Part shown: positions 5,169 to 35,069 of the stretch, piece after piece | Position numbering within the stretch: the first letter of the stretch is position 1 | How the letters are laid out: each line of letters begins with the position of its first letter | IMG/VR virus record: IMGVR_UViG_3300042988_001121 | Location: 114,210 to 178,209 of that record | Origin: a virus | DNA length: 64,000 nucleotides | Direction: 5' to 3' (one strand) | Notes under the pieces: generated by a model | The model's input: only the letters and a program-made list of their open reading frames with translations | What the model was told of the DNA's origin: nothing | Databases searched by the model: none | Program-made: the position numbers and the translations under genes

Positions 5169-5555
5169 TTATTCCTGCTTAATCGGACACATGGCTTTGC
5201 CCCATGCAATGGCGTCTTCTTTGGTGAGGAAAAAAAGTCCGCGCTTCTGGTGTTGTTTGTCACAGCAGTCATCTATCCAATGGGTCATATCGTAGAAACT
5301 AGGTAAACCCGTTGATGGGTAGTAATATGTTTGAGCCATCTCTAGCTTCCCCATATAAGGCGCTGGCAATTCAAAGCCGTTGAAGGTGATGGTTTCTGGC
5401 TTGACTCGATAGTGTTCTTTTCTGTACATCACGTTAGATACCTGATATAGCACTGTGGGCCAGTCTTCATTTATCCAATCACCTTCGCCGTCTTGCCACT
5501 GAATCTGTTTTCCATCTGCAATAGCTTGCAGGATTTCTGCGTATTGGTGTTTCAT
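5169..5555 (-). CDS. Conserved phage hypothetical protein
   Basis: MKHQYAEILQAIADGKQIQW...YRVKPETITFNGFELPAP; first gene after the promoter module. Confidence 0.8.
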   Translation of the reverse strand: MKHQYAEILQAIADGKQIQWQDGEGDWINEDWPTVLYQVSNVMYRKEHYRVKPETITFNGFELPAPYMGKLEMAQTYYYPSTGLPSFYDMTHWIDDCCDKQHQKRGLFFLTKEDAIAWGKAMCPIKQE

Positions 5556-5560
5556 ACCAT

Positions 5561-5614
5561 CTCCTGTTTTGTTGAATCAATTATAACACAAGTAAAGGTT
5601 ATGTGTAGATTATT
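5561..5614 (-). promoter_or_regulatory. Early promoter and leader module, copy 2
   Basis: 30 bp identical to 2362-2391; TCTACA-N18-TATAAT. Confidence 0.8.
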
Positions 5615-5669
5615 TTACGACAAATCTTCTAAAGTAAATTTCTTGTCGTTCACAAATTTCCTTCACGGT

Positions 5670-6251
5670 TCACTTATCGATGCCGAGTGCAATCAATTCT
5701 TCTTTTGTCAACTTTGCTTTAGCAGAAGCGATGAGAGATGTACGATCCGCTTCTTCGATGGCTGCTTTAAGAATGTGAACAATCTTTTTAAGGTCAACAT
5801 CATGAATAGTCGCCTTCTTTTCCTCAACTTCCTTCATCAATTCTTTACAGTAATCATAATTACATTCGTTTGAAGGAACATCAACTACTTTCTTTCTTTT
5901 CTTCGAGGCTTTCTTTATTTCAGTCACAATTTCCACCAAGGGGTGCATAGAGACTTCAAAATTTTCAAAATCGGAACTTGATGACGTTGAACTGTCATAA
6001 GTGTAGTGGCAAGGTGTTCCTTGGTGATACTGATAATTGCCGCCTTTATATCCAGTAAATGTATCGATCAATGCACACTCAACGTGCTTAATGGATTCAT
6101 CGATAGTCACTTCATCAAAATTAAATGCGACTTCATAATAATACCCTCGGTGGCTGTGAGGGTTAACAGGCAGATCACTCACCCAACTTCCACCATAACC
6201 GGGAGCAGATTTGATGGTTTTGAGAATTCGAAGAACTTCACCTAATTTCAC
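5670..6251 (-). CDS. Hypothetical early protein
   Basis: 193-aa ORF with a non-ATG start directly after the leader SD GGAG. Confidence 0.75.
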   Translation of the reverse strand: MKLGEVLRILKTIKSAPGYGGSWVSDLPVNPHSHRGYYYEVAFNFDEVTIDESIKHVECALIDTFTGYKGGNYQYHQGTPCHYTYDSSTSSSSDFENFEVSMHPLVEIVTEIKKASKKRKKVVDVPSNECNYDYCKELMKEVEEKKATIHDVDLKKIVHILKAAIEEADRTSLIASAKAKLTKEELIALGIDK

Positions 6252-6256
6252 AACAA

Positions 6257-6309
6257 CTCCTGTTTTGTTGAATCTATTGTAACACAGACAAACTTATGTG
6301 TAGATTATT
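6257..6309 (-). promoter_or_regulatory. Early promoter and leader module, copy 3
   Basis: TCTACA (6304-6299)-N17-TACAAT (6281-6276); two mismatches to copies 1 and 2. Confidence 0.8.
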
Positions 6310-6316
6310 CGGGTTC

Positions 6317-6892
6317 TTATTTCGTCAACTCAGTTATGTCCGTGAATCTACGCGAAACATAACCACAGTTCTTTGTGTAATGTTTATCATTAGCAATTCG
6401 CTTAAACACATCAATTGCCTTTTCATCACGACTGCATGGAAACGATTCTCCGCACGTTCCGCCTTTCCATGAACCTTTATCCTCCCCTATCTCGTGATTA
6501 TAAAGCACCTCTAGGTTGATATAGATTTTCTTTTTCAAGAACAAACGAAGGAATTTGAACAGTCCTGTTCCTCGTCTGTATTCGGCATAAGTCTTGTGGC
6601 ACTGCGCCTCGATGATGGTTCCATCAAAGTCACGGAACTGGATGACAGTTTTCTTTACTGCGTTCCTTGCAGCTTCCAGCGACTTAAAATCAATTCTACC
6701 GTTCGGAAGATCACTCACATTCGCAAACTGGCTACCATCTTCATTCAGAATCAGACACTTAGTACGATCTTCTTCGACCCACGGAAACTGTTTACACCAA
6801 GATTTCGATCCTTCCTTGCCGCCCCAACTACCATTTTGAATTCCGTAACGTATGTGGATGTAGTTGTCATAAAGGGTCAACGAGTATCGCAT
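6317..6892 (-). CDS. Conserved phage hypothetical protein, possibly the 3' part of a gene interrupted by tnpB
   Basis: Contains a KGSWKGGT motif; weak SD; ATG directly preceded by an in-frame TAG at the insertion edge. Confidence 0.65.
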   Translation of the reverse strand: MRYSLTLYDNYIHIRYGIQNGSWGGKEGSKSWCKQFPWVEEDRTKCLILNEDGSQFANVSDLPNGRIDFKSLEAARNAVKKTVIQFRDFDGTIIEAQCHKTYAEYRRGTGLFKFLRLFLKKKIYINLEVLYNHEIGEDKGSWKGGTCGESFPCSRDEKAIDVFKRIANDKHYTKNCGYVSRRFTDITELTK

Positions 6893-6907
6893 CTAAATAT
6901 GTCTTTC

Positions 6908-6915
6908 TATAAATA
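6908..6915 (+). promoter_or_regulatory. T4-type late promoter upstream of tnpB
   Basis: TATAAATA about 35 nt before the tnpB ATG, followed by an A-rich unstructured leader. Confidence 0.6.
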
Positions 6916-6949
6916 ACAAAAACAATTTAACAAAAATTATACACAATAA

Positions 6950-8152
6950 ATGCAACACAAGGCATATAAGTTTAGACTGTACCCAACGAAAGTTCAAGAA
7001 GCTCTCTTGAACCAAACTTTTGGGTGCGTTCGTTTCTTATGGAACCAACATGTTGCTGCTTTCAATAGTTTTTCTTCCTTCGGTCCAAACAAAATTGTAA
7101 CATCAAAACTATTGAAGGACACAGAAGAATTTTCTTGGTTGAATTCTGTTTCTGCGGCTGCTCTGCAACAAAAAGATAACGATTTTTCTGAATTTAAGAA
7201 GCAGTTTTTCTCCAAAACACGTAAAAAGAAAATTGAGCGCCCTAAATTCAAAAAGAAAGGACAGAAAGACTCTTATCGTCTTCCTAATCAAAAGTTTACT
7301 TTGGACCAAGAAACAAAAAGAATTCGACTCGAAAAAATTGGTAAAGTGAAAATAGTTTTAGACAAAACAATACCAGAAGGCGCTAAGTTTTTATCGGTAA
7401 CAATAACAAAAAATCAAACCGGTGAGTATTACGCATCTGTTTTGGTTGAACAAGAAATAAGATGTAAGGAAACAACAGGAAATAGTATTGGTATAGACCT
7501 CGGGTTTATTGATTTGATGACTCTATCAAATGGAATGGTTATACGCAACCCAAGGTGGTTTCGTAAAAATCAAGCGAAGCTAAAAAGAAAACAAAAATCA
7601 TTAAGTAGAAAAAAGATAGGCTCTCGTAGGAGAGAAAAACAAAGAATTGTTGTTGCAAAACAGCATCTAAAAGTTGCTCGACAGCGAGAATGGTATCATC
7701 ATCAAATTTCATCGTGGTTGGTTAATAATTTTGACACTATTTGTATGGAAGACTTGAATTTGAATGGAATGAAAAAATTTCTAGGAAAATCTGTCAATGA
7801 TGCCGGTCTTTCTAATCTAATGAATAAAATTGAGTATAAATCTAAGTGGTACGGAAGAACCTTCCATAAAGTGGATAGATTCTTTGCATCCTCAAAAACA
7901 TGTTCTTCTTGTGGCAATAAAACAGCGTTTGGTATGGATGTGCGAGAATGGACATGTCAGGCGTGTGGTACATTCCACGACAGAGATTTGAATGCATCAA
8001 TAAACATTTTGAAAAAAGGTCTTAGTGACCTTTATCAATATACTTCGGCTGAGTTAACCGAAGTCATTGAACGTGGAGAAGTCGTAAGACCTAGATTGGG
8101 TGAAATTCATCCAATGGTGGCTACTTCTATGAAGCGTTTAGCGAAACTGTAA
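6950..8152 (+). CDS. tnpB: TnpB RNA-guided endonuclease (IS605 OrfB family)
   Basis: KAYKFRLYPT HTH, RuvC-I GIDLG, RuvC-II ICMEDL, zinc ribbon SKTCSSCG...WTCQACG, RuvC-III HDRDLNASINI. The D-E-D triad is intact. Confidence 0.96.
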   Translation: MQHKAYKFRLYPTKVQEALLNQTFGCVRFLWNQHVAAFNSFSSFGPNKIVTSKLLKDTEEFSWLNSVSAAALQQKDNDFSEFKKQFFSKTRKKKIERPKFKKKGQKDSYRLPNQKFTLDQETKRIRLEKIGKVKIVLDKTIPEGAKFLSVTITKNQTGEYYASVLVEQEIRCKETTGNSIGIDLGFIDLMTLSNGMVIRNPRWFRKNQAKLKRKQKSLSRKKIGSRRREKQRIVVAKQHLKVARQREWYHHQISSWLVNNFDTICMEDLNLNGMKKFLGKSVNDAGLSNLMNKIEYKSKWYGRTFHKVDRFFASSKTCSSCGNKTAFGMDVREWTCQACGTFHDRDLNASINILKKGLSDLYQYTSAELTEVIERGEVVRPRLGEIHPMVATSMKRLAKL

Positions 8153-8176
8153 AATTTACGGTTTTGCGTAACTACT
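8040..8176 (+). ncRNA. Putative omega-RNA (reRNA) scaffold of TnpB
   Basis: Hairpins overlapping the tnpB 3' end: ACTTCGG/CCGAAGT, AGAAGT/ACTTCT enclosing ATTGGGTGAAATTCATCCAAT, and AAACTGTAAAATTTACGGTTT. Confidence 0.6.
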
Positions 8177-8330
8177 TCGATTTCTTGGGCTGAATGAACG
8201 CAGGCAGCTTGAATGTTCGATAACCGAATTTTCCGAGATAAAAGGTTAGATCGTTGTGGTCATACCGTTTGACTCGATCTTCCATTTCTCGACCAACACG
8301 AAACGTGATACCGTAATAGTGTGCCATCAT
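8172..8330 (-). CDS. 52-aa ORF, possibly the 5' part of the gene interrupted by tnpB
   Basis: MMAHYYGITFRVGREMEDRVKRYDHNDLTFYLGKFGYRTFKLPAFIQPKKSK*; ATGA-coupled to the upstream gene; not in the track. Confidence 0.6.
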   Translation of the reverse strand: MMAHYYGITFRVGREMEDRVKRYDHNDLTFYLGKFGYRTFKLPAFIQPKKSK

Positions 8331-8515
8331 TCGCTCCGTAGTTGATCAATGTGCATCAAAATAAATGCACTGGCAATAACAATGTTCAATACGGGCGCAA
8401 TCGCGAACAGCAACCCAATGAGCAATGTGTTATCACTATAGTCAATGTAATCATGATATATTGCACGAATTACGTAGGCAAAACAGATTGCCATCGGGAT
8501 AAAGTAGTAAATCAT
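8327..8515 (-). CDS. Small membrane protein
   Basis: Two hydrophobic segments; coupled to the RNA ligase stop. Confidence 0.7.
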   Translation of the reverse strand: MIYYFIPMAICFAYVIRAIYHDYIDYSDNTLLIGLLFAIAPVLNIVIASAFILMHIDQLRSE

Positions 8516-9519
8516 TTTTGTTTCAACAGATATTCGTTACTGATTGACTTGAATGAAACCCGGTCATCCGAGTACAAGGTAAAAACCAGCCCTTCACGAA
8601 GAACACCGGATTTATTCAGAACTGTCTTACCATTCGCCATATCCAGAATGTCATCCAGAGACTTACCCGTAAGCGACAACTTATCAAAGATGACAGGAAC
8701 CATGTCAAGACACAGATCACGGCACACCTTCTGTTTTTCTTCTACTGACAAGTAACGCTGTGCATCAATGTCGAATACATCGAATACTCGAAGAACATAA
8801 GAATCCAGTTTATAGATGTTGCCCGAGATACCGGGACCGCACTGTTCGCCTTGGATCGCAAGATTACGACCATATGCACGAAGTTTTTCTTCTAGTGCAT
8901 ACTTACGTGCAGTGTTCCAGAAAGTATTATCATCCGAATATTTCAGATCAAGATTTCGTGAAGCAACTCCAAATTCATTGTTATTGAGATATGCCGTGAA
9001 AGACTGACCCTCAAGTTTCTCGGTAACTTGCCATTCACCTGTCTGAATCAAAACAAGAACATCTTGATAAACCGTCTGGATACGCGCCTGATCTGTTTTC
9101 TGAATGAAGGATGGGAACGACCCTTTGGTATCTGCCGAAGTGAATTCTTGTGGAGGCTCCCATTTCTGGATACCTAACACGTCTGTCAAATCTTGACCGA
9201 TGGTCGATCCTTCTGCTAAGGTAATTGGCAGCAACAGACCCTGACTCAATGCACCACGCAATTTAACGGTACGAAGTCGCTCTCCTGATACTTCATTATA
9301 GACTCGGGGAGTTTTTCCTTTTGTTAGGAATGGAGCAAGTGCTGTTGGAATCCAGCTATCAATCTGACAATAGATAACGGTATCGCCTACTTTATAAACA
9401 CCTTTTTTGTCAACTACCCACCAACCTTGTACACGGTATTGACAAATTGCATCAGCATCGGGAATGTCCCGGATTTCTTCGATACGAACTACTTCTGCTA
9501 GTTTACGTTTCATTTCCAT
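8512..9519 (-). CDS. ATP-dependent RNA ligase, DRB0094/Rnl5-like family
   Basis: N-terminal OB-like RKLA.V..I..I..IPDADAI, motif I TEKLEGQS, GVASRN, IQGEQCGPGI, REGLVF, FKSISNEYLLK. Confidence 0.9.
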   Translation of the reverse strand: MEMKRKLAEVVRIEEIRDIPDADAICQYRVQGWWVVDKKGVYKVGDTVIYCQIDSWIPTALAPFLTKGKTPRVYNEVSGERLRTVKLRGALSQGLLLPITLAEGSTIGQDLTDVLGIQKWEPPQEFTSADTKGSFPSFIQKTDQARIQTVYQDVLVLIQTGEWQVTEKLEGQSFTAYLNNNEFGVASRNLDLKYSDDNTFWNTARKYALEEKLRAYGRNLAIQGEQCGPGISGNIYKLDSYVLRVFDVFDIDAQRYLSVEEKQKVCRDLCLDMVPVIFDKLSLTGKSLDDILDMANGKTVLNKSGVLREGLVFTLYSDDRVSFKSISNEYLLKQK

Positions 9520-9521
9520 GA

Positions 9522-9776
9522 TTACCTCACAAAGACATTATGTTTTTCGATGTTCCACTTTTCTGTGATAGGACTACCATCAGCAGCTTCATCAACACAA
9601 ATGTAGGCAACTGTCTTCTTTACAATCGCATAACGAACGCCATCAAGTACATCGATTTCATGAGTGAATCCATTCTGGATCGCCCAAGAATCCTTAGTCA
9701 CTGTGTAAGTGAACCAGTTGCGAACATCTGATTCACGAAATTCACCTACTGTGTTCTGTGTTGGTTTGTAAGCCAT
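9522..9776 (-). CDS. Hypothetical early protein
   Basis: First gene after the promoter at 9808-9841; SD GGAG. Confidence 0.75.
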   Translation of the reverse strand: MAYKPTQNTVGEFRESDVRNWFTYTVTKDSWAIQNGFTHEIDVLDGVRYAIVKKTVAYICVDEAADGSPITEKWNIEKHNVFVR

Positions 9777-9807
9777 TTTGGACTCCTAAGTTTGCTGCGA
9801 TGGAGTT

Positions 9808-9841
9808 ATTGTATCACAGAGAAAAATATGTGTAGATTATT
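9808..9841 (-). promoter_or_regulatory. Early promoter
   Basis: AATAATCTACA: TCTACA (9836-9831)-N17-TGTGA-TACAAT (9813-9808). Confidence 0.8.
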
Positions 9842-10607
9842 TTGGATACCACTTACCGAATACTTGTACCGCTTTCAGGGCTTCCTTGTCAGCATACTCA
9901 ATTCTATATTGTTGAACCATTCCCATTTCATTTACCCAATTGTTCACATATGCAGCAAGGAAAACATCGCCTGCGCCAATAACATCTACCACATCAACTT
10001 CTGAATCTCGCTTCATCATTGATGTACAGAAGTTTCCGTCAATCCACATAGGAGGATTTTCCCCACGAGTAACAATCAATCTATTCGGTGTATTGCCGTT
10101 CAAACGCTCAAATTCAATCTGATTGATTTTAAACACAATTCTCTTATATTGTGATATGTCAGATTTTTTCGTGTCACAAAATACGATGGTATATGATGTG
10201 TTATCTAGATACTCCAGAAGTTCGTGTGTCACTGAACCTTTATTGTAATCGCATATAACAATAGCCTCTGGATGAAACGATTGAATGGTACGTTCAACTT
10301 CTTCTATCGTAAAAGGCAGAACCGAATTTTCTGAATCTAGCCGCATCAACAGTTTAGTACCGTCCCAAAATCTAGTTTTTGATCCTGTCTGTCGTAGCAA
10401 CGATTTAACTGTATTTCCGTAACTCTCTAGTAATTTTGCTACATAACCGCCCATTCCATCAGACACCCCGGAATCTTCTATTGAATCTCCGTCTATCCAC
10501 AGCTTTGGGATTTCATTGCCATGACTCTCGGTCGTATATGTTGTTGTCTTATCTGATTTGATATCAATATCAAAACAAGAATCGCCGATAACTAAAACTC
10601 TACTCAT
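9837..10607 (-). CDS. PfkB-family sugar kinase, HldA/RfaE-domain-I-like (heptose-7-phosphate kinase)
   Basis: VLVIGD, GMGG.VA..L, K.R....L.RLD, ICDYNKG, VFCDTK, KINQ.E, IVTRGE, DVVDVIGAGDVFLA. Confidence 0.8.
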   Translation of the reverse strand: MSRVLVIGDSCFDIDIKSDKTTTYTTESHGNEIPKLWIDGDSIEDSGVSDGMGGYVAKLLESYGNTVKSLLRQTGSKTRFWDGTKLLMRLDSENSVLPFTIEEVERTIQSFHPEAIVICDYNKGSVTHELLEYLDNTSYTIVFCDTKKSDISQYKRIVFKINQIEFERLNGNTPNRLIVTRGENPPMWIDGNFCTSMMKRDSEVDVVDVIGAGDVFLAAYVNNWVNEMGMVQQYRIEYADKEALKAVQVFGKWYPK

Positions 10608-28536: not shown

Positions 28537-28986
28537 TTATAACACAGAATTCTTCATATGTTTTTTATGTATTTTACATGAAATCCAGCTATTGTAATAA
28601 AGATCGCTCAAAAGAACATCCCTGATGAGTTGTTCCTTTATTTCATAATACGAAAGTTCTGACTTACTATAACAATATCGAATAATTTCTCTGCGATATC
28701 GATCAGCGCCATTTTTTGCAATTTCTTCTTTCAGAAAATCGCTGGAGCCATAATAGTCTCGCCAGTCACTCGGTATCTGAATTTTTGTTTTCTTCTTAAC
28801 CTTTGATCCTTTATTTACTCCACTTTTTACGGTAACTGTTCTGACCGAATACTTGTGCGAATAAAGATTCTTCTTACCAATATACATTTTTCCGCTGTCT
28901 ATATGAGTTATCAGATAGATGAACCCAATAGCTGCTTCTGGTATTTCTGAATCAAGGACAGGTTTATCATTATACACCCAATCCAT
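28537..28986 (-). CDS. GIY-YIG endonuclease (Seg-like)
   Basis: GFIYLIT....K.YIGKK, W..YYGSS, REII..C, E...YEIKEQ. Confidence 0.85.
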   Translation of the reverse strand: MDWVYNDKPVLDSEIPEAAIGFIYLITHIDSGKMYIGKKNLYSHKYSVRTVTVKSGVNKGSKVKKKTKIQIPSDWRDYYGSSDFLKEEIAKNGADRYRREIIRYCYSKSELSYYEIKEQLIRDVLLSDLYYNSWISCKIHKKHMKNSVL

Positions 28987-33394: not shown

Positions 33395-34422
33395 AATTTA
33401 GAGAGTTCCATTGCCTCTGTATAGATTTCTGACATTTTCTTTTTTAACACATCTTTATCATTAACCGCAATATCATCAATAACATGCATTAGCATATGAT
33501 GTGTTCCCTTGAATTCAATTTTTGTATTCAGAGCAGTCTCAACAGATTTCTGCATTTCGGTATCAATAATCTGTAATGATAATGGCTGTGTTTGCTGAAC
33601 ACGCTCAATGAACTTGTCGAATTTCTTCTGATCGGTTTTGTTGACCACTGTCACTTTAATATGATGTGGATATTCTAGCTCAATATCTGGTACTTCGTTT
33701 TCATCATATGAAAATTTGTGATGTAAGGTAAACGGGTTTCGATTGAACTGGTAGCTACCATCATCTTTCAGTATAGTGAATCCTTTTGGGTCATTGTAAT
33801 CAGACCAATCCATTTCATACGGTGTACCAACATAGATAACATTATCTTTCTGGCTCCGCGTGTGATAGTGACCACTGAAGACTGTTTTGTATTTGGATAG
33901 TTTGCTGTGGTCTAATCCATGTTCAGCGATTGTTCCGGGATGTAGAGGAAAATTTGCGAACTCGAAATGACCGATAGCAACATTAGATTCAGACTCATTT
34001 GCGAACTTGAGTGATGCTGGCTCGTTTTCCTCATTGATCCAAGGGTATAAATCGACGTATAAGCCGTTTTTATTGATTGTATGTGGGTAGGTATCAACCA
34101 CTGTCATAAAACGCCTCTGAAGCAGTTTTGGTGCGTTTACGCGGTTAGTTGAACGATAGAAGCTGTCATGGTTTCCGCAGACAACATACAATTCGATATT
34201 TCTGGCGTCTAACTGATCAAAAAACATTTCATTTGCTTTCTGAAGCGACAGAAAGTTGACTGACTTTCTCTTATCAAAAAGATCGCCTGTCTGAATAATT
34301 GTTTTTACGTTATGAAGATCAATGAAGTCGAACAAGTAGTCATAGAATTTCTTCTGGTACTCGTACATGAAAGGAATATTTTCGCGAATTCCGAAATGTG
34401 TATCACCAAGAATAATAATCAT
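33391..34422 (-). CDS. gp47: Recombination endonuclease subunit gp47 (Mre11-like)
   Basis: GDTHFG, GDLFD, GNHD, GHFE, SGHYH, YVGTPYE..WSD. Confidence 0.97.
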   Translation of the reverse strand: MIIILGDTHFGIRENIPFMYEYQKKFYDYLFDFIDLHNVKTIIQTGDLFDKRKSVNFLSLQKANEMFFDQLDARNIELYVVCGNHDSFYRSTNRVNAPKLLQRRFMTVVDTYPHTINKNGLYVDLYPWINEENEPASLKFANESESNVAIGHFEFANFPLHPGTIAEHGLDHSKLSKYKTVFSGHYHTRSQKDNVIYVGTPYEMDWSDYNDPKGFTILKDDGSYQFNRNPFTLHHKFSYDENEVPDIELEYPHHIKVTVVNKTDQKKFDKFIERVQQTQPLSLQIIDTEMQKSVETALNTKIEFKGTHHMLMHVIDDIAVNDKDVLKKKMSEIYTEAMELSKL

Positions 34423-35027
34423 GCTAATAGACTACAAATATCGTTACCGTTGTTCTGTTCTTTTTGTTTCTTGGCAGTATACGGTGTTTTATTCTTGTGG
34501 CGCAGACTTGGATGCAATAAGCCTGTCTGATCTTTTTCTGTGTCTTCGCGAAGGCGATCAACAAAAATATCATTGTCTTCCAGAAACTCTACGAATGCGT
34601 TTCCTACTTCAACGTCGTTGTATATAGATTGCTGAACAAATTCGCTACTGAGTTTCTGTTGAATCAATGCTGCCTTGACGGAATGTTCACGTTGCTCGAT
34701 CTTGATACGAGTGATATATTCGTTCCAACAAATCTGAGAGAAATATGCAAATGGGTTCTCGCCACGATTAGGATCAAATCTATCGATCTTGATCATGCAC
34801 TTGAGAATGGCATCAGAAATCATTTCATCGCGAAAAGAGTAGCCAATGAAATTATAGAGGTTGCTCATGTTAGTGGCAATTCTGATGATTGCGTTCGCAA
34901 TGTCGTCCGGGATTACCGGACGTTCTTCATTATTTTCTATTGACAGTTTCAACTCAGACAGATAGATGCACATTGCTGCATATAAGTCTTTGTTAGAAAC
35001 ATAATGTGTTGGCTTCAATTCACTCAT
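34419..35027 (-). CDS. gp55: Late sigma factor gp55
   Basis: HYVSNKDL, IA..MS...NFIGYSFRDEMISDAI..C......FDP....NPFAYFSQICWN; start MSELK after GGAG. Confidence 0.95.
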   Translation of the reverse strand: MSELKPTHYVSNKDLYAAMCIYLSELKLSIENNEERPVIPDDIANAIIRIATNMSNLYNFIGYSFRDEMISDAILKCMIKIDRFDPNRGENPFAYFSQICWNEYITRIKIEQREHSVKAALIQQKLSSEFVQQSIYNDVEVGNAFVEFLEDNDIFVDRLREDTEKDQTGLLHPSLRHKNKTPYTAKKQKEQNNGNDICSLLA

Positions 35028-35069
35028 AATTTCTCCGCAAAATATCATTATAACACAATTATTTAATGC

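Follow-up and report, generated by a model that had tools for sequence, protein, structure and literature searches.

Why does a lytic, T4-like phage carry an intact gene for the nuclease TnpB, read against all of its neighbours and accompanied by no transposase? The gene lies in a window of 64,000 nucleotides (nt), bases 114210-178209 of the 178,209 bp virus record IMGVR_UViG_3300042988_001121. The record has direct terminal repeats of 127 bp and is rated complete; it comes from freshwater metagenomes and the phage is uncultivated. Positions below refer to the window unless they are given as genome positions. The gene itself, tnpB (6950-8152, plus strand), encodes a predicted RNA-guided nuclease of 400 amino acids (aa). 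TnpB, from which Cas12 descends, is one of the most abundant genes known; to our knowledge, demonstrations of its natural role come only from bacterial chromosomes and plasmids. During mixed infection lytic phages undergo intense recombination, a setting that would suit a homing nuclease directed by a guide RNA. An earlier note, made from the letters alone, had proposed such a role, and we regard late-expressed, RNA-guided homing as the best reading of the locus, one towards which we lean with modest confidence.

The protein contains the Pfam domains HTH_OrfB_IS605 (3e-15), OrfB_IS605 (3e-20) and Cas12f1-like_TNB (9e-24), in that order, and all three matches exceed the curated cut-offs. Its best match among solved structures is ISDra2 TnpB (8exa/8bf8, E 5e-59), with whose catalytic motifs GIDLG (D183), MEDL (E267) and HDRD (D344/D346) align; we take the ISDra2 residues to be D191, E278 and D361. 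Two CxxC pairs (C318/C321 and C336/C339) supply four zinc cysteines, which are invariant, together with D183, E267 and D346, in all 30 of 30 homologues of 58-73% identity. The nuclease is apparently active. The intact RuvC D-E-D triad and zinc ribbon that the earlier note had read are thereby confirmed, as is the orientation of the gene: the open reading frames (ORFs) from 5169 to 10607 around tnpB are all on the minus strand. Some TnpB derivatives encoded by phages are known to work as transcription factors (bioRxiv 10.1101/2023.11.30.569447), and a domesticated regulator of this kind (TldR-like) would bind its RNA-guided target without cutting. With the triad and zinc finger intact and invariant, a guide that is simply the adjacent flank and a right end that is canonical (see below), we find such a role for this copy scarcely credible.

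The 3′ end of the gene was compared in 31-32 related loci, aligned from the HDRD motif past the stop codon. The similarity shared by 31 right ends runs to ...GYRTAAYTA and then vanishes; the next base is T in 27 of the 31. This edge is sharp and places the right-end boundary at 8174/8175. In the window the terminus GTAACTA(C) (8168-8175, plus strand) reads GCGTAACTA, with its last base at 8174 and C at 8175. The minus-strand TAG at 8172-8174 is the stop codon of a small ORF of 52 aa that abuts the element. Just inside the terminus lies a predicted omega-RNA scaffold (8042-8167, plus strand), which overlaps the last third of tnpB and is supported by covariation and folding energy. The interval 8030-8174 folds with -46.8 kcal/mol (z = -4.5; 0 of 200 shuffles fold as well) into a 5′ hairpin, a long bipartite stem with an inner hairpin, a terminal hairpin and a single-stranded GUAACUA. 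RNAalifold gave 14 consensus pairs across 32 right ends, seven of them changed on both sides, with covarying helices at 8045-8048/8058-8061, 8069-8074/8134-8139 and 8078-8081/8124-8127 (plus strand). In this consensus 98% of the cells are paired, against 34-52% when the 3′ partner is slid, and the observed covariation was reached by 0 of 500 shuffles. The C-terminus of this TnpB is some 8-11 residues shorter than in its closest relatives, owing to an earlier stop; despite this, the terminal hairpin (8141-8167, plus strand) is kept, its pairing preserved by compensatory changes across clades. An Rfam scan of window 6000-9500 (E up to 1) returned no family, RAGATH-18 included. The 3′ structure has the anatomy expected of an omega-RNA scaffold, as the earlier note had suspected from stems over the 3′ end.

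The sequence that follows, TTCGATTTCTTGGGCTGAAT (8176-8195, plus strand), is the predicted guide, or target-matching flank. It is placed by its position relative to the right end, with an uncertainty of ±1 nt, which puts the predicted first base of the guide at 8175-8177 (TTCGATTTCTTGGGCT...), no more than 2 nt from the start first proposed; its 16-mer is unique in the genome. That the flank would act as a guide we infer from the published mechanism of IS607 and IS605 TnpB (PMC10690162, PMC8612924). We also observed that the junction between right end and guide, CTACTTCGAT (8172-8181), nearly repeats CTACTTCTAT (8121-8130) within the scaffold, maybe by chance.

Upstream of the gene, 34 nt before the ATG and close to the distance of about 35 nt originally reported, stands TATAAATA (6908-6915, plus strand), a motif of the T4 late-promoter type. 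A scan for sigma-70-like promoters upstream of tnpB found none. The gene content of the phage is T4-like; it has genes for a gp6-like baseplate protein, tail cap, tail-tube-like protein and SegE-like endonuclease, and a 209-aa ORF (34419-35048, minus strand) with a weak match to Sigma70_r2 (1e-4, below the cut-off) is a candidate late sigma factor of the gp55 type. Over the whole genome of 178 kb, TATAAATA is under-represented, with three occurrences (window 49618) against about 8.5 expected, and two of the three lie upstream of IS607 genes, at 34 and 41 nt. The upstream motif of the phage itself is [AT]TAAATA, mostly in the form AATAAATA or ATTAAATA; TATAAATA contains ATAAATA. Both TTAAATA and ATAAATA show an enrichment of about 11-13-fold before phage genes, and 38 of the 61 [AT]TAAATA sites lie no more than 80 nt upstream of a gene on the same strand, including those for the tail cap, gp6, the tail-tube-like protein and the SegE-like protein. 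The base before the phage's own ATAAATA is A or C, and the canonical T occurs only in the copies of the insertion sequence (IS); the late-promoter consensus of this phage seems to differ from that of T4 at the first position.

The motif is also common among related elements. NTAAATA occurs no more than 80 nt upstream of tnpB in 24 of 35 non-redundant related loci, mostly at -28 to -45, against a background of about 3%, and TATAAATA precedes tnpA as well in a sister element of the same genome (B, below) and in loci L016 and L020. A late-type promoter before the element's genes is well supported as a conserved sequence feature, from which we infer late timing. The putative phage late promoter of the earlier note is supported as a motif class, which precedes structural genes and most related tnpB genes; the support does not extend to TATAAATA itself, which has only three sites in a genome whose usual motif is [AT]TAAATA. 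A second set of enriched upstream words, AATCTACACATAA and TGTGATACAAT (10-15-fold), probably belongs to an early or middle promoter cassette.

Where, then, is the transposase? No tnpA was found in the window or beside this copy, as had been noted, and a Y1 transposase (PF01797) is absent from the complete genome (the controls were positive). The genome does, however, encode an IS607-type TnpA about 11 kb away, and the claim of a missing transposase holds only for the window. Three TnpB genes are present: A, the copy described here, B (55% identical) and C (42% identical). Element B (genome 109102-110956, minus strand) is a complete IS607-type element about 11 kb upstream of A, with a serine-recombinase TnpA of 197 aa (PF00239, 6e-19) and, directly downstream, a TnpB of 411 aa (genome 109102-110337); its tnpA lies about 3.2 kb before the window start. 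Element C (genome 107060-108331, plus strand), beside B, is a solo TnpB of 423 aa with TTAAATA 24 nt upstream. Together B and C lie 3.2-7.2 kb before window base 1. The GC content of the three tnpB genes and tnpA is 34.5-37% in a genome of 40%, and that of element A is 35.5% versus 40-43% in its flanks; the composition of the element is foreign to the phage. Element B seems to interrupt a small ORF, with a shared TAT: when its flanks are joined with one TAT kept, we read an unbroken ORF whose stop overlaps the start of the next gene (ATGA).

TnpB genes are common in phage records and the gene family is ordinary. The TnpB of A matches 411 phage records, all at less than 60% identity, and has homologues of 58-73% identity on metagenome contigs. 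Ten loci that we fetched all have phage surroundings, and no two share a site (T4 gp15, gp6 baseplate, UvdE, Tad3 and NinX). No tnpA is visible in nine fetched loci of 63-71% identity, and the closest relative, L091 (73%), retains the last 27 codons of tnpA. IMG/VR contigs carry full-length relatives of 45-63% identity, and as many as three copies share a single 243-kb phage. Among viral loci with a TnpB of at least 45% identity, a full tnpA precedes tnpB in L016, L020/21 and L033, remnants of it are found in L032, L036 and L049, and the others are solo. The serine-recombinase fragments upstream of intact tnpB in L032, L036, L049 and L091 look like stepwise decay of tnpA. In cellular genomes (one for each of 185,579 bacterial and archaeal species) identity was at most 42%, and the matches end near residue 360, before the tail that overlaps the RNA. 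The lineage reads as one circulating among phages, found in these searches only in phage or metagenome DNA. In this clade tnpA is usually lost. Since a serine-recombinase tnpA stands beside paralogue B and some relatives and none beside A, this copy is evidently a tnpA-less derivative of an IS607-type insertion sequence. What is unusual is the combination of a phage-associated lineage, an AT-rich core, a conserved late-type motif and frequent transposase loss.

Such a derivative might simply be a stranded relic, a recently immobilized fragment whose ORF is still open and of no use to itself or to the phage. The lost tnpA, the shortened C-terminus, the TAC at the right-end core where 27 of 31 relatives have TAT, and a ribosome-binding site that is not evident would all fit. 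We nevertheless consider a relic distinctly unlikely, given a full-length ORF with every catalytic and zinc residue intact, a terminal hairpin maintained by compensatory changes in spite of the earlier stop, and dozens of solo relatives that retain both protein and RNA. Moreover, the identical sequence was seen in two further studies; a second contig encodes the identical TnpB protein.

The left end is less sharply defined. The leader (6893-6949, plus strand) is a 57-nt gap between the start codon of the neighbouring Acb3-like gene (6890-6892, minus strand) and the tnpB ATG. Candidate junctions are 6893 (a CTA repeat), 6900/6901 (after AAATAT) and 6884 (the breakpoint of contig X4), a range of 6884-6901. 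No inverted repeat links the two ends, and only CTA or TA is common to the junctions. Read as a CTA repeat (6893-6895 and 8172-8174), the empty site would be ...AAG TAG ATG... on the minus strand, a stop/start junction, with a joined flank ...GCATCTACTTCGATT. A CT core (6893-6894 and 8175-8176) would create an in-frame fusion of 243 aa between the 52-aa and Acb3-like ORFs, with the junction ...GCATCTTCGATT. A TA(T) core (6898-6900 and 8173-8175), with the flank AAATAT, would leave a 62-aa upstream ORF overlapping the Acb3-like start and predicts the junction ...CATCTAAATA(T/C)TTCGATTTC. Flanks next to the left ends of full copies are of RATAT type (GAATAT in B, AGATAT in L016 and CAATAT in L020), and by analogy with the family the TA(T) core is favoured. 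The CT-core reading is unsupported: the 52-aa ORF has no detectable likeness to the N-termini of Acb3 homologues, and the fusion requires a core that fits the family worse than TA or TAT. Contig X4 (333 nt, from an unrelated freshwater run) equals the window over 6884-6963 and differs completely to the left of 6884, so the left part of the element evidently adjoins different DNA elsewhere. Its breakpoint is 9 nt outside the left boundary first assigned and three codons into the Acb3-like ORF; the 9 nt shared are GTATCGCAT.

The ends bear directly on a conventional explanation, in which A is a non-autonomous IS607 copy moved in trans by the TnpA of B, while TnpB only restores the donor site, as in bacterial IS607. 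The earlier note had itself named a tnpA elsewhere that mobilizes the element as grounds for abandoning its proposal, and a serine-recombinase tnpA is indeed present in the same genome, beside a TnpB that is 55% identical; only the Y1 type is absent throughout. The left end, too, is maybe kept, as AAATAT resembles GAATAT, AGATAT and CAATAT, with TATAAATA a few nt inside. The right ends of the two elements nevertheless differ (GCGTAACTAC versus GCATGATTAT) and their scaffolds resemble each other only moderately; the similarity of the left ends of A and B is not significant; the putative TAT core does not keep its third base at both ends (TAT versus TAC); and most relatives lie on contigs without a visible tnpA, yet keep an intact TnpB and its RNA. 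On balance we judge mobilization in trans unlikely, though to be taken seriously.

An exact empty site comes from a relative. One solo element, B-like and 50% identical to A, occurs on six IMG/VR contigs, and a seventh contig, L185, is empty: its sequence runs ...GATAAATACTATAT and directly on into CATAGTCAAGG..., with the flanks joined (...CTATAT to CATAGTC...) and one TAT kept. This comparison fixes the boundaries exactly and shows a core of TA(T) and a flank that ends in TATAT. The empty allele (L185:12060-12143, minus strand, compared with L043) is at the very end of its contig, which fits an assembly break at a presence/absence polymorphism. The search for empty-site alleles proposed in the earlier note therefore succeeded for a 50%-identical relative and not for this copy. 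Neither a codon-degenerate flank pattern nor a left-end 24-mer matched any metagenome contig, contigs of four runs held no joint skipping the element, and a flank search for relative L012 returned its own contig only; contigs drop rare variants, and failed searches of this kind do not show absence. Contigs X1 and X2 of the source sample and the sediment run X3 hold the occupied form only. No RNA runs are listed among the sequencing runs that contain this stretch.

We propose the following sequence of events. Late transcription of the gp55 type would read tnpB and the right end as one RNA, which TnpB would trim to a scaffold ending ...GUAACUA(C) plus some 16-20 nt of flank (TTCGATTTCTTGGGCT...). 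The complex would cut insertion-free genomes of the same or related phages at the joined site, where a transposon-associated motif (TAM) ending in TA(T) is followed by the guide match. Recombination-dependent repair, active late in T4-like infection, would then transfer a copy of the element, along with nearby markers, to the genome that was cut. An occupied site would escape, its TAM being replaced by the right end. Spread of this kind needs no transposase, which would explain the loss of tnpA in most relatives.

The scheme has precedents. TnpB is an RNA-guided nuclease (PMC8612924) that acts in homing or retention of IS605 and IS607 elements (PMC10055086, PMC10690162) and in a gene drive in plasmids (PMC11870625). 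The family to which we compare the locus is IS607 with TnpB and its omega-RNA (reRNA), as in CboIStron TnpB (PMC10690162) and the ISXfa1-type TnpB with RAGATH-18 RNA (PMC11061315). As in IS607, a small serine-recombinase TnpA is found directly upstream of tnpB in relatives of this copy, terminal inverted repeats are lacking, a short core is shared by both junctions, and the right end terminates a scaffold that overlaps the 3′ end of tnpB. There is likewise no target-site duplication beyond the short core, the precise empty site of the relative keeping one TAT. The core and target here are, however, AT-rich (TA or TAT, flank RATAT), whereas characterized IS607 members have a GG core and the TAMs TGGG, AGGAG or GAGGG (PMC10690162, PMC11061315, PMC13565253). 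In those members the last scaffold bases mimic the TAM (PMC10690162; review PMC13565253), and by analogy ...ACTA(C/T) here would face a TAM such as AATAT. Unlike ISXfa1-type elements, this one matches neither RAGATH-18 nor any other Rfam family, and unlike IS607 elements generally it lacks tnpA and resides in a lytic T4-like phage with a motif of the late-promoter type. The protein is closer to ISDra2 TnpB (5e-59) than to a solved 384-aa chain named 'Transposase', 8iaz (1.8e-25). With ISDra2 TnpB, an IS200/IS605 protein (PDB 8exa/8h1j, PMC8612924), it has in common the domain order, RuvC triad, zinc finger and an omega-RNA embedded in the mRNA; in contrast to ISDra2 and IS605, the genome has no Y1 TnpA, relatives use a serine recombinase and the ends, as far as tested, do not follow a subterminal hairpin logic.

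The closest functional counterparts may be the free-standing seg and mob homing endonuclease genes of T-even phages, which are likewise small selfish nuclease genes placed between phage genes. A late-type promoter motif lies upstream here as there, and the SegE-like gene in the window has the same motif class. Like seg and mob, the element would be expected to target co-infecting relatives and to rely on recombination for repair. It would differ in that the target is predicted to be recognized by a guide RNA and TAM instead of by protein, and in that the presence or absence of the insertion would separate self from non-self, as it does in intron homing. The proposed dependence on TnpB and not TnpA, and on an empty orthologous site in a co-resident replicon, also recalls the plasmid spread of IS605 (PMC11870625) and 'transposon non-restorative homing' (PMC13565253); the former work was in plasmids, and here the replicon is a phage. 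A 2026 review treats such homing into co-infecting phages as a theoretical class (PMC13565253). Our literature search found no demonstrated TnpB homing in lytic phages and no description of IS607 elements bearing late promoters.

Several observations weigh against late-expressed homing. The TnpA resident in the genome could mobilize this copy conventionally. No empty allele of this copy was found; neither the 20-nt guide nor a left-end 25-mer matched any viral contig. The left boundary is uncertain and with it, for that reason, the TAM. Alignment of the left end with that of B scored 34, a score reached by 814 of 2000 shuffles, so it is not significant, and we rejected homology of these left ends as evidence. 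No obvious Shine-Dalgarno sequence precedes the tnpB ATG. As to the promoter, the 35 loci share ancestry, and the NTAAATA count shows conservation and not independent gain; in the L041 group, moreover, an ATAAATA is part of the phage flank, immediately before the junction, and the upstream motif could reflect a target-site preference instead of a promoter borne by the element.

The element sits between two minus-strand genes. To its left, abutting the left end, is a gene (6317-6892) for a 191-aa Acb3-like protein (Pfam PF25187, 9e-26), of a family that inhibits the cyclic-oligonucleotide-based antiphage signalling system (CBASS). The protein covers only positions 84-245 of the 245 in the profile, and its N-terminus is 46-100 aa short compared with four database homologues (237-291 aa, at most 32% identity); the start of the ORF coincides exactly with the element edge. 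To its right, the 52-aa ORF (8172-8330) abuts the right end and has the predicted target at its 3′ end; a Pfam search with it gave no match. We considered whether it might be the lost N-terminus of the Acb3-like gene and rejected the idea: MAFFT shows a short LPxxIxP resemblance only, and hhalign gave a probability of 0.4% and matched the wrong region. Two small ORFs downstream of the element is a gene for an RNA ligase with a PHA02142-type oligonucleotide-binding (OB)-fold domain (8512-9519, minus strand). The gene for the SegE-like GIY-YIG homing endonuclease (28537-28986, minus strand), with TTAAATA 22 nt upstream, is a protein-guided counterpart of the TnpB elements in the same genome. The locus matched none of 50,697 phage records by megablast or blastn, which gave no close phage relative.

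This neighbourhood lends some colour to a different use of the same machinery, as a weapon of competition whose cuts at the insertion-free locus of co-infecting relatives serve mainly to exclude those phages, or their local markers, with little copying. Exclusion of co-infecting relatives or local markers is described for some T4 homing endonucleases. The anatomy would be the same as for homing, and the flanks, an anti-defence gene (Acb3-like) and small accessory genes, are typical of variable regions where marker exclusion pays; in its support we also count a review that describes both homing and exclusion as outcomes for phage homing endonucleases (PMC13565253). The sequence does not distinguish exclusion from homing, and near-identical elements in different contexts argue that the element itself is copied. 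A role mainly in exclusion therefore appears very improbable, and homing remains the reading that we prefer.

Taken further, A, B and C may represent an IS607-type lineage adapted to T4-like phages, its core, TA(T), and its TAM being AT-rich and its tnpA and tnpB preceded by late promoters of the T4 type. After losing its transposase, such a lineage could have become a pure RNA-guided gene drive between co-infecting phages, in the niche of seg and mob, with three divergent copies in this genome and a guide for each. We offer this broader scenario tentatively, and with less than even confidence. If the function is not borne out, the locus would be one more gene of the type annotated as 'transposase' in a phage genome. 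If it is true, the lineage would offer compact nucleases with an AT-rich TAM. The phage-associated and mostly transposase-less lineage, its late-type motif and a natural empty allele make RNA-guided homing from phage to phage directly testable.

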